From Mycobacterium tuberculosis H37Rv (GTDB taxonomy: Bacteria > Actinomycetota > Actinomycetes > Mycobacteriales > Mycobacteriaceae): 32,000 nt of DNA. Both the position numbers and the translations under genes were made by a program. This document shows, piece by piece, positions 26,993 to 29,529 of the stretch; the first letter of the stretch is position 1, and each line of letters opens with the position of its first letter. Location of the stretch: positions 1,620,001-1,652,000 of the forward strand of contig NC_000962.3 of NCBI RefSeq assembly GCF_000195955.2, in the 5' to 3' direction. Under the pieces are notes generated by a model. That model saw nothing but the letters and a program-made list of their open reading frames with translations. It did not search any database and was not told the DNA's origin.

Positions 26993-29529
26993 CACTCACC
27001 CCAGAGGCCAGCAAGAGCGTTGCCCAGCCCCCGACCCAGGCTCCCCTGACCCAGGAAGAGGCGATCGCGTCGCTGGGCCGGTACGGCTACGGCTGGGCGG
27101 ACTCCGACGTCGCGGGTGCCAACGCGCAGCGCGGGCTTTCCGAGGCGGTGGTCCGCGACATCTCCGCGAAGAAGAACGAGCCCGATTGGATGCTGCAGTC
27201 GCGGCTGAAGGCGCTGCGCATTTTCGACCGCAAGCCCATTCCGAAGTGGGGCTCCAACCTCGATGGCATCGATTTCGACAACATCAAGTACTTCGTGCGC
27301 TCCACCGAGAAGCAGGCCGCGAGCTGGGATGATTTGCCAGAGGACATCCGCAACACCTACGACCGGTTGGGAATCCCGGAGGCCGAGAAGCAGAGATTAG
27401 TAGCTGGAGTAGCCGCACAATACGAAAGTGAAGTTGTATATCACCAGATCAGAGAGGATCTGGAGGCTCAAGGAGTCATATTTTTAGACACTGATACTGG
27501 TTTGCGAGAACACCCGGATATTTTCAAGGAATATTTCGGTACAGTAATCCCTGCCGGCGATAATAAGTTTTCTGCATTGAATACTGCAGTTTGGAGTGGT
27601 GGGTCCTTTATTTACGTCCCGCCCGGTGTTCACGTCGACATTCCGCTGCAGGCCTACTTCCGAATCAACACCGAGAACATGGGCCAGTTCGAGCGGACGC
27701 TGATCATCGCCGATGAGGGCTCTTACGTGCACTACGTAGAGGGCTGCCTGCCCGCCGGCGAGCTCATCACGACCGCCGACGGCGATTTGCGGCCCATCGA
27801 GTCGATTCGCGTCGGTGACTTCGTCACCGGCCACGACGGGCGGCCACACCGCGTCACCGCTGTACAGGTGCGTGACCTCGATGGCGAGCTGTTCACCTTC
27901 ACACCGATGTCGCCTGCCAACGCATTCTCTGTCACCGCCGAGCACCCCCTTCTCGCTATTCCCCGCGACGAGGTGCGTGTTATGCGGAAGGAACGCAATG
28001 GGTGGAAGGCTGAAGTCAACAGCACCAAGCTGCGTAGCGCCGAGCCGCGATGGATCGCGGCGAAGGATGTGGCCGAGGGTGACTTCCTGATCTACCCCAA
28101 GCCGAAGCCGATCCCCCACAGGACGGTTTTGCCGCTCGAGTTTGCGCGCCTGGCGGGCTACTACCTGGCGGAGGGTCACGCGTGTCTCACCAATGGCTGT
28201 GAGTCGCTGATCTTCTCGTTCCACAGCGATGAGTTCGAGTACGTCGAGGATGTGCGCCAAGCGTGCAAGTCGCTGTACGAGAAGTCGGGATCGGTATTGA
28301 TCGAGGAGCACAAGCATTCGGCGCGCGTCACCGTGTACACGAAGGCGGGCTATGCGGCGATGCGCGACAACGTCGGCATTGGATCGTCGAATAAGAAGCT
28401 GTCGGATCTGTTGATGCGTCAAGACGAGACGTTCTTGCGTGAGCTGGTCGACGCCTATGTGAATGGAGACGGCAACGTCACGCGCCGTAACGGGGCGGTG
28501 TGGAAGCGGGTACATACGACATCGCGCCTCTGGGCGTTCCAGTTGCAGTCCATCCTGGCGCGTCTGGGTCACTACGCCACTGTTGAACTGCGCCGACCGG
28601 GCGGCCCTGGTGTGATCATGGGCCGCAACGTCGTTCGCAAGGACATCTACCAGGTGCAGTGGACCGAGGGCGGCCGCGGACCGAAGCAGGCCCGCGACTG
28701 CGGCGACTACTTTGCGGTGCCAATCAAGAAGCGAGCGGTCCGCGAAGCACATGAGCCCGTCTACAACCTCGATGTCGAGAATCCGGACAGCTACCTCGCC
28801 TACGGGTTCGCCGTGCACAACTGCACCGCACCGATCTACAAATCGGATTCATTGCACTCAGCGGTGGTCGAGATCATCGTGAAACCCCATGCGCGCGTGC
28901 GTTACACCACCATCCAGAACTGGTCGAACAACGTCTACAACCTGGTCACCAAGCGGGCCCGCGCCGAAGCCGGGGCCACCATGGAGTGGATCGACGGCAA
29001 CATCGGGTCCAAGGTGACCATGAAGTACCCGGCGGTCTGGATGACCGGCGAGCACGCCAAGGGCGAAGTGCTCTCGGTGGCGTTCGCCGGCGAAGACCAG
29101 CACCAGGACACCGGCGCCAAGATGCTGCACCTGGCGCCGAACACGTCGAGCAACATCGTGTCCAAGTCGGTGGCCCGCGGCGGCGGCCGCACCTCCTACC
29201 GTGGCCTGGTGCAGGTCAACAAGGGGGCGCATGGGTCGCGGTCCAGCGTGAAATGCGATGCGCTGCTGGTGGATACGGTCAGCCGCAGCGACACCTACCC
29301 CTACGTCGACATCCGCGAGGACGACGTCACCATGGGCCACGAGGCCACCGTGTCCAAGGTCAGCGAGAACCAGCTGTTCTACCTGATGAGCCGCGGGCTG
29401 ACCGAGGACGAGGCGATGGCGATGGTGGTGCGCGGCTTCGTCGAGCCGATCGCCAAGGAGCTGCCGATGGAGTACGCGCTGGAGCTCAACCGGCTGATCG
29501 AGCTGCAGATGGAGGGCGCGGTCGGATGA
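26989..29529 (+). CDS. sufB: Fe-S cluster assembly scaffold SufB, interrupted in frame by an intein (precursor 846 aa)
   Basis: The ATG at 26989 overlaps the sufR stop as ATGA. Conserved SufB blocks are present ([72 protein letters not shown]). The TGA at 29527-29529 overlaps the sufD ATG. Confidence 0.95.
   Translation: [846 protein letters not shown]
27745..28821 (+). mobile_element. SufB (Pps1) intein, 359 codons, with a LAGLIDADG homing-endonuclease domain
   Basis: The extein junctions are [13 protein letters not shown]... and ...[13 protein letters not shown], giving Cys1, a terminal His-Asn and a +1 Cys. The two LAGLIDADG blocks are LAGYYLAEG (28150-28176) and [10 protein letters not shown] (28444-28473). 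Joining the exteins restores a continuous conserved SufB sequence. Confidence 0.92.

Follow-up and report, generated by a model that had tools for sequence, protein, structure and literature searches.

The sufB locus and its AT-rich tract

The sufB gene of Mycobacterium tuberculosis H37Rv (Rv1461) contains a short segment whose base composition and codon use differ sharply from their surroundings, and which leaves the encoded protein almost unchanged. We analyzed it in a stretch of 32,000 nucleotides of contig NC_000962.3 (positions 1,620,001 to 1,652,000, forward strand), referred to as the window. A window position is the H37Rv position minus 1,620,000, an offset fixed by the published Rv1461 coordinates 1646989-1649529. 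The coding sequence of sufB, identified by its open reading frame (ORF) and translation, by an identical protein on record and by the published coordinates, spans 26989-29529 on the plus strand and comprises 846 codons, one intein included. For M. tuberculosis the gene is essential, and the intein resident in it has been studied as a stress sensor and drug target. This intein, named here intein b, occupies 27745-28821 on the plus strand, with boundaries ...YVEG/CLPAG...VHN/CTAP, and its 359 codons have a G+C fraction at third positions (GC3) of 0.81. It corresponds to the Mtu SufB/Pps1 intein of 359 amino acids described in PMC8891592.

The segment, hereafter the tract, was delimited by composition and codon comparison to 27394-27615 on the plus strand, that is, 222 bp forming codons 136-209 (74 codons) of sufB. 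It has the lowest G+C content of any 222-bp stretch in the window, 42.3% against a mean of 68.2% (standard deviation 6.2%, z = -4.2). Exactly 25 of its 74 codons end in G or C (GC3 0.338), whereas 74-codon windows drawn from high-GC3 frames average 0.806 (standard deviation 0.071, n = 15,055); the lowest such value away from the tract, 0.459, comes from a stretch whose coding frame is probably another one. The codons AGA (two), TTA (two), ATA (one) and GTA (four) are each about 10-fold enriched relative to the rest of the window. The edges are sharp, as GC3 over a sliding 30 codons drops from 0.87 to 0.33 and recovers within about 30 codons on either side. From the 3' end of the tract to the start of intein b at codon 253 (27745) there are 43 codons.

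An earlier note, made from the letters of this DNA, had described the low G+C (about 42%), the count of about 25 codons ending in G or C, the rare codons, the peptide and its open frame, the sharp edges, the 43-codon spacing, the far more GC-rich intein and the lack of a comparable coding stretch in the 32 kb. Every one of these descriptive claims is correct: composition and codon use do deviate from the host (G+C 42% against 68%, GC3 0.34 against 0.81), and a GC3 profile places the tract at the extreme of the window. The anatomy given was thus right as far as it went, but the vacant site of a second SufB intein inside the tract had been missed. The next-lowest non-overlapping 222-bp stretches, at 14665-14886 (54.5% G+C) and 2735-2956 (55.0%), are both far milder.

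A natural feature of the M. tuberculosis complex

The sufB DNA of the window is matched base for base by eight of nine independent NCBI assemblies of the M. tuberculosis complex. The ninth (L006, GCA_047782915.1) has two differences, at 27444 and 29256, that leave the protein unchanged; the first is the single variant base of an otherwise invariant tract in the nine assemblies. The identical SufB protein is recorded in 28,967 collection blocks, M. tuberculosis complex assemblies among them. The tract is real and natural. The idea that it was produced by sequencing, assembly or synthetic recoding, one of four options that the earlier note had listed without choosing, has the odd composition as its sole attraction and is refuted by the eight identical assemblies and by the related tracts in other species and metagenomes described below; its probability is practically nil.

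The tract is not a general property of SufB either, as judged from 80 other actinobacterial species, some 20 of them Mycobacteriaceae. The equivalent segment has a GC3 of at least 0.80 (up to 1.00) in 78 of the 80, and the two exceptions (0.64 and 0.70) are genes whose flanks are likewise lower. No AT-rich tract was present in about 20 other mycobacteria and 55 other actinobacteria compared. The encoded peptide is identical at 72 of 74 positions to that of two other mycobacteria. Relative to the consensus of GC-rich (GC-type) mycobacterial alleles, 55 of the 74 codons differ, 51 synonymously and four nonsynonymously.

A vacant intein site inside the tract

A full-length SufB protein search returned variants about 860 and about 1,220 residues long, which led to the finding of a second SufB intein, named here intein a. 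This 378-amino-acid Hint plus LAGLIDADG intein is inserted at the same position in six alleles, as determined by protein alignment. In M. tuberculosis the corresponding insertion (homing) site, site a, is empty: it lies at 27424-27429 on the plus strand, codon 146 (GAA, Glu) meeting codon 147 (AGT, Ser) at the junction 27426/27427, as placed by alignment with proteins of M. canettii (P0210) and M. shinjukuense (P0122) and with four further alleles. The junction falls 11 codons (33 bp) inside the tract, and 106 codons separate it from site b, the insertion site of intein b. Given the six occupied alleles, the tract spans a genuine intein insertion site.

Intein a is carried by M. shinjukuense, by one M. 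canettii strain and by four metagenomic or unnamed mycobacterial alleles (L100-L103). M. shinjukuense possesses both inteins, and the M. canettii strain has intein a without intein b. All six copies of intein a have an intact second LAGLIDADG block (LAFLGGWVDADG), and a sequence resembling the first block (LLG..GDGN) is visible in both copies that were aligned, those of M. canettii and M. shinjukuense. Seven further SufB proteins of 504-585 residues (P0252-P0256, P0264 and P0268) match only 43-65% of intein a; from their sequences, they look like shortened, endonuclease-less derivatives at site a, as expected late in the homing cycle.

Site a probably corresponds to the M. leprae-type Pps1 site of the InBase database. 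M. leprae was not among the returns of a protein search with the intein-a sequence, and for M. leprae, M. lepromatosis, M. triplex and M. xenopi the literature makes other SufB insertion sites probable. The M. canettii gene (L090/L091; GCA_014489225.1, SRR12470241; gene 1501-4098) is a sufB allele quite unlike that of the M. tuberculosis complex: intein a is present, intein b is absent, and amino-acid differences are scattered along the N-extein. Its sequence provides evidence of sufB allele replacement within the tubercle-bacillus lineage.

The AT-type haplotype in other mycobacteria

Related tracts were found among about 33 sufB alleles, which had been picked by similarity to the M. tuberculosis protein and are related by descent. 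At least five other mycobacterial alleles carry this AT-type haplotype with common hallmark codons. One is L094, an intein-free sufB from a Mycobacterium metagenome-assembled genome (MAG), with an AT-rich tract at about codons 104-200. A metagenome scan with an AT-type 21-mer recovered two contigs, L095 and L096, both high-GC mycobacterial sufB genes with an AT tract of their own; L095 is intein-free and encodes a protein 87% identical to that of M. tuberculosis, and L096 is similar to L094. L097 and L098 combine a full AT tract with intein b as their only intein, and L099 and L104 have partial tracts.

The five full AT-type alleles (M. tuberculosis, L094, L095, L097 and L098) have in common the codon AGA for Arg155 and the runs GAT AAT AAG TTT TCT and ACA GTA ATT, the latter with some divergence in M. 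tuberculosis and L095. M. tuberculosis, L094 and L095 contain the 21-mer TATCACCAGATCAGAGAGGAT exactly; L097 and L098 each depart from it by one or two third-position differences. In M. tuberculosis, L095, L097 and L099, Ser147 is encoded by AGT in place of TCN, a switch of codon family that composition alone does not explain. At 23 four-fold degenerate sites counted by hand, the alleles ending in A or T agree on a single base at 11 and show both A and T at 10. Taken together, the hallmark codons and the pattern at four-fold sites indicate that the AT-type haplotype is of one origin, and not young.

The haplotype also bears on whether the tract arose in place by a burst of mutation, either from a cytosine deaminase or from error-prone break repair at the homing site, with purifying selection then acting on the protein. 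Compared with the GC-type consensus, the M. tuberculosis tract has 66 nucleotide changes, 55 of them from G/C to A/T, and the bias, together with the 51 synonymous changes among 55 changed codons, is what such a burst would leave. The spectrum, however, rules out a deaminase-like burst and speaks against hypermutation from either source: transitions and transversions are nearly equal (36 and 30), with many C>A and G>T changes, and no strand-coordinated C>T / G>A pattern is seen on either side of site a. Moreover, the change from TCN to AGT at Ser147 needs three substitutions, and the same haplotype occurs in distant lineages. We consider this origin extremely improbable.

Mosaic structure and its relation to intein a

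Mosaicism was judged from contrasts in divergence inside and outside the tract, from breakpoints and from nearest neighbors. Between M. tuberculosis and its closest relatives, divergence is 22-33% inside the tract and about 8-10% outside it (p down to 3e-20). Against the M. canettii variant, the values are 28.8% and 7.9% (p = 5e-16), and five other comparisons gave a similar contrast. Within the tract, identity is 78-85% among AT-type alleles and 65-74% between these and GC-type alleles; outside it, every AT-type allele has a different GC-type or intein-a allele as its nearest. The breakpoints also vary by lineage: L094 has them at about codons 104 and 200, L098 at about 121 and 240, and M. 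tuberculosis at 136 and 209. The breakpoints and the incongruent nearest neighbors indicate that the tract has an ancestry different from that of the rest of sufB. The earlier note had proposed a gene-conversion or mosaic tract from a low-GC donor; the mosaic part is borne out by the divergence contrast and by the occurrence of the haplotype in other alleles with other breakpoints, but the donor was not found.

The distal part of the tract (codons 182-209, 27532-27615 on the plus strand) carries AT-type codons common to M. shinjukuense, as seen in codon alignments. M. tuberculosis and M. shinjukuense are 89% identical there and only 67-74% identical over codons 136-181. M. shinjukuense has GC-type sequence to the left and right of its intein a and is AT-type in this distal part only, as if the remainder of the tract had been replaced by an intein a along with its GC-type flanks. 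By hand count, each of the two species has since their split acquired about three changes toward GC and about three toward AT in the distal part, a balanced and modest change that would fit neutral drift over a short time.

Further signs of exchange were seen around site a. Outside the tract, four of the five full AT-type alleles have an intein-a carrier as their nearest relative. Within 15 codons of site a, intein-a alleles have an AT-ending codon fraction of 0.20-0.40, against 0.04-0.16 elsewhere, a difference nominally significant (uncorrected) in four of the six. Short remnants of the haplotype stand next to intein a: in L103 the hallmark codons ATC AGA GAG GAT TTA adjoin its 3' side, in a gene that is GC-type elsewhere, and in L101 an AT patch adjoins its 5' side. 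Homing inteins are known to co-convert the extein sequence on their flanks (PMC10643990), and by analogy co-conversion at homing sites, along with recombination stimulated by breaks there, would give rise to mosaic patterns like those of sufB.

The tract is thus natural and mosaic, shares its haplotype with other alleles and coincides with a vacant intein site. We favor, with moderate confidence, the explanation that an AT-rich sufB haplotype passes between mycobacteria by homologous recombination and that the tract is a mosaic piece of it, lying across the vacant homing site of intein a. Homing, we infer, is the driver of these exchanges. Double-strand breaks made during intein homing, together with co-conversion, would make this part of sufB a recombination hot spot, because of which AT-type and GC-type alleles would have been joined repeatedly, with breakpoints that differ by lineage. 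The protein would have remained unchanged because purifying selection on its highly conserved sequence lets hardly any but synonymous differences persist. In M. tuberculosis, DNA so rich in AT would then attract DNA-binding proteins (Rv0023 and probably Lsr2) and form a cluster of rare codons, both as side effects.

The source of the AT-richness

Several points weigh against a segment that moves by homing-linked recombination, most of them concerning where an AT-rich haplotype could have come from. Searches of the plasmid, phage and viral-contig collections, one metagenome k-mer scan and a comparison with 80 genome loci turned up neither a low-GC donor nor any closer relative from outside the host clade. 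Distant blastn searches with the tract returned only Bacillus sufB at about 71% (best 71.6%) from the plasmid collection and only a 66% match to a Listeria phage from the phage collection. A scan of viral contigs for a 17-mer gave 17 chance matches, none in SufB, and none of the 80 genome loci is closer to the tract than GC-type mycobacterial alleles are. A distant donor appears unlikely also because the tract peptide is typically mycobacterial (72 of 74 residues). Nor did the tract simply arrive with intein a or intein b, since both are much more GC-rich (GC3 of 0.67-0.79 in intein a and 0.81-0.89 in intein b, compared with 0.34 in the tract); co-arrival with either intein is thereby disfavored. 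The exchanges between A and T at 10 of the 23 four-fold sites fit long persistence in an AT-favoring regime, which in-place selection explains as well as a donor clade does. Furthermore, the tract makes up 15% of the extein, so that a given site would be included by chance in about 15% of cases, and the allele sample is small.

A foreign low-GC donor would explain the codon use; the failure to find one, the mycobacterial peptide and the far more GC-rich inteins speak against it. Selection in place would explain why diverged alleles all have a GC3 of about 0.4-0.5, but would leave unexplained its absence from most mycobacteria and its free truncation. The AT-richness may stem from a low-GC donor lineage or from in-place maintenance.

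A possible immunity to intein invasion

Full AT-type tracts were seen only in alleles in which site a is empty, and their nearest relatives outside the tract are mostly intein-a carriers. This distribution brings in another explanation, in which the tract is an immune empty-site allele: intein a would have invaded the usual GC-type targets, differing targets would have survived, and the rest of the tract would have hitch-hiked. By hand count, about nine of the 30 nucleotides around the junction differ between M. tuberculosis and the consensus of the intein-a flanks. Five of these roughly nine M. tuberculosis bases occur in none of the six intein-a flanks, and three of the five make up the switch from TCN to AGT at Ser147, the +1 position. 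Invasion-resistant alleles are, in addition, known for haloarchaeal MCM inteins.

A parallel exists at site b, whose flanks lie at 27700-27760 and 28822-28860 in the window. The alleles in our set with an empty site b show a small AT-shifted variant there, for example TGT ACT GCT CCC GTT as against TGC ACC GCG CCG ATC; this variant stands beside the empty site in L094 and in the M. canettii variant (L091) and, in part, in L095 and L100. Codons ending in A or T make up a fraction of 0.25 within 15 codons of site b in empty alleles, compared with 0.12 in occupied ones and 0.075 in unrelated intein-free ones, and extein divergence is also higher around this site between alleles that differ in intein b.

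Against immunity, a recognition site needs about 20-30 bp and not 222. The sequences near site a in L094 (TCA GAG GTG GTG) and L098 (TCC GAG GTT GTT) are within the range of intein-a flanks, AT-type patches lie directly beside a resident intein a in L101 and L103, and many GC-type empty sites persist in other mycobacteria. We therefore regard an immunity allele as decidedly unlikely to be the explanation of the tract.

Intein b and a proposed translational pause

The earlier note had also suggested that the tract slows translation ahead of the downstream intein. In this explanation, a selected rare-codon patch would assist the folding of the N-extein or the splicing of intein b. The dense cluster of codons rare in this genome, its position 43 codons upstream of intein b and the joint occurrence of tract and intein in M. 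tuberculosis, L097 and L098 are what it would predict. The distribution of the tract goes the other way: L094 and L095 have full tracts and no intein, L099 and L104 carry intein b with merely weak or short AT patches, and M. shinjukuense, L101 and L102 carry intein b with most of the tract replaced. Nearly all orthologs make the same peptide from GC-rich codons, and the rare-codon cluster is not conserved in position across them (about 20 mycobacteria and 55 actinobacteria do not have it), its presence being unrelated to that of intein b. A role of the tract in the splicing of intein b is thus unsupported and largely refuted by this distribution, and a selected pause is very improbable.

Two side observations concern intein b and its site. 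A lower-GC part of the intein (28232-28635, about 57-60% G+C) coincides with a chromatin immunoprecipitation sequencing (ChIP-seq) peak of Rv0047c at H37Rv 1648232-1648635 (Minch et al. 2015). In L013 (MAG MFD02923.bin.1.142, gene from 1501), the sufB frame stops after 317 codons, soon past the position of site b, which may reflect a different insert, a frameshift or an assembly problem; this allele was left out of the full-length comparisons.

DNA-binding proteins and other DNA-level signals

The ChIP-seq peak of the transcription factor Rv0023 covers 27253-27641 (H37Rv 1647253-1647641) and is centered on the tract at 27467 (1647467), and the sequence quoted for this peak is that of the tract (Minch et al. 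2015, PMC4301838, supplementary file 2). In ChIP-seq of the nucleoid-associated protein Lsr2, resolved by gene, Rv1459c, Rv1460 and Rv1461 are bound in three of three replicates and Rv1462 is not, and Rv1461-Rv1466 are up-regulated in an lsr2 deletion strain. Judging from its composition, the tract itself is probably bound by Lsr2, the ChIP data being at gene level.

These data give some weight to an explanation in which selection has kept the AT-richness in place, the tract serving as an intragenic landing pad for Lsr2, and perhaps other proteins, that brakes the suf operon, while recombination merely spreads and trims it. Besides the binding and expression data, it would account for AT-type alleles that are 15-22% diverged and yet all have a GC3 of about 0.4-0.5, with A and T exchanged at four-fold sites; drift toward the host GC3 of 0.9 should have erased the tract if it were old and vertically inherited. 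Some tract residues also follow the host clade, such as Ser170 and Tyr175 of L095, which are also found in M. porcinum. On the other hand, about 20 other mycobacterial species and 55 other actinobacteria do without the tract, its extent ranges from 10 to about 135 codons between alleles, and its partial overwriting in M. shinjukuense was followed by no sign of compensation. The Lsr2 data are at gene level, with no peak coordinates inside the tract in those parts of the supplementary data that were accessible, and the balanced changes since the split of M. tuberculosis and M. shinjukuense fit neutral drift. We consider a selected landing pad possible, if rather unlikely. Under the mosaic reading that we favor, the binding of Rv0023, and probably of Lsr2, is likely a side effect of AT-rich DNA, with a possible function.

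An embedded AT-rich element had been another option of the earlier note. Its nucleoid-protein version has the support from the literature given above; its promoter versions do not hold up. A promoter scan of the tract gave no promoter-like site, and in the accessible part of Cortes et al. 2013 antisense reads for Rv1461 average about 1 against about 1,940 sense reads, with no start site at 1,6473xx-1,6476xx. An Rfam search gave no match overlapping the tract, its two sub-threshold hits (E about 0.8-0.9) lying upstream, and the ORFs embedded over the tract are of chance size only. A terminator-like hairpin with a T-run (GGCTCAAGGAGTC ATATTTTTAG) is present at 27465-27487 on the plus strand inside the tract; it is weak and probably a chance product of AT-rich sequence, as the count of such structures is within that of shuffled controls. 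A promoter, a terminator, an RNA family and an embedded ORF were all rejected, the scans having given nothing beyond chance. Further downstream, published start sites assigned to Rv1462 fall inside 3' sufB at H37Rv 1649097 and 1649436 (window 29097 and 29436), because of which sufD may also be transcribed from within sufB.

More speculatively, the AT-shifted synonymous recoding at vacant homing sites of intein-exposed mycobacteria could be seen as the footprint of a conflict with the endonuclease, the M. tuberculosis tract being an immunity allele that escaped cleavage and was later co-opted as a suf brake. Escape could have come from altered target bases, including the codon-family switch of the +1 serine, or from Lsr2 covering the site, and the place where Lsr2 lands would later have taken on the role of braking the suf operon from inside the gene. 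We hold this combined scenario to be doubtful.

Comparison with known systems

Homing co-conversion, known from haloarchaeal MCM and PolB inteins, group I introns and phage T4 homing endonucleases, resembles the sufB patterns in two respects: sequence beside a homing site has an ancestry other than that of the rest of the gene, and breakpoints vary by lineage, with the neighboring inteins a and b appearing to overwrite each other's flanks. Unlike in those systems, full tracts surround an empty site here and do not stand beside a resident intein. The tract is also far more AT-rich than either intein or the host, and homing at this site is a prediction from sequence.

Invasion-resistant homing-site alleles, which homing-cycle models predict and which are described for haloarchaeal MCM-d, are similar in that empty alleles persist where the intein circulates, with changes at the insertion point that include the +1 serine codon. 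However, MCM-d resistance is due to an amino-acid change that blocks splicing, whereas in sufB synonymous changes spread over 222 bp leave the protein as it is, and any resistance is hypothetical.

Xenogeneic silencing by Lsr2 and H-NS offers a third comparison, as the tract is an AT island in a genome of 66-68% G+C, in a gene reported as bound by Lsr2 and an operon that is de-repressed in an lsr2 mutant. The typical targets of such silencing are whole foreign genes, islands or promoters, whereas here the target would be a 222-bp synonymous patch in an essential, vertically inherited housekeeping gene. Finally, the pbp genes of Streptococcus and Neisseria and the genomes of M. canettii are interspecies mosaics that, like sufB, show sharp blocks of high divergence in a conserved gene, with a patchy distribution across species. 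The sufB block differs from these in bringing no amino-acid or phenotypic change and in being compositionally alien, not simply divergent.

We found no earlier description of the tract in the literature, in a search limited to open-access full text. Mosaicism at homing sites is already known; new here is that it is AT-rich, protein-silent, located on an empty site and common to several species.

From a biological perspective, sufB contains a compositionally alien, protein-silent segment, traded among mycobacterial species, across the empty landing site of its second intein. So far, intein homing dynamics have been studied mainly in archaea, yeast and phages, and sufB may serve as a natural system for the homing, co-conversion and loss of bacterial inteins and possibly for immunity to them. 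The tract is also an intragenic AT island in a gene reported as bound by Lsr2, within an operon that responds to Lsr2. Lastly, it provides a lineage-informative marker, and it calls for caution in scans of sufB for codon usage, horizontal gene transfer and selection.

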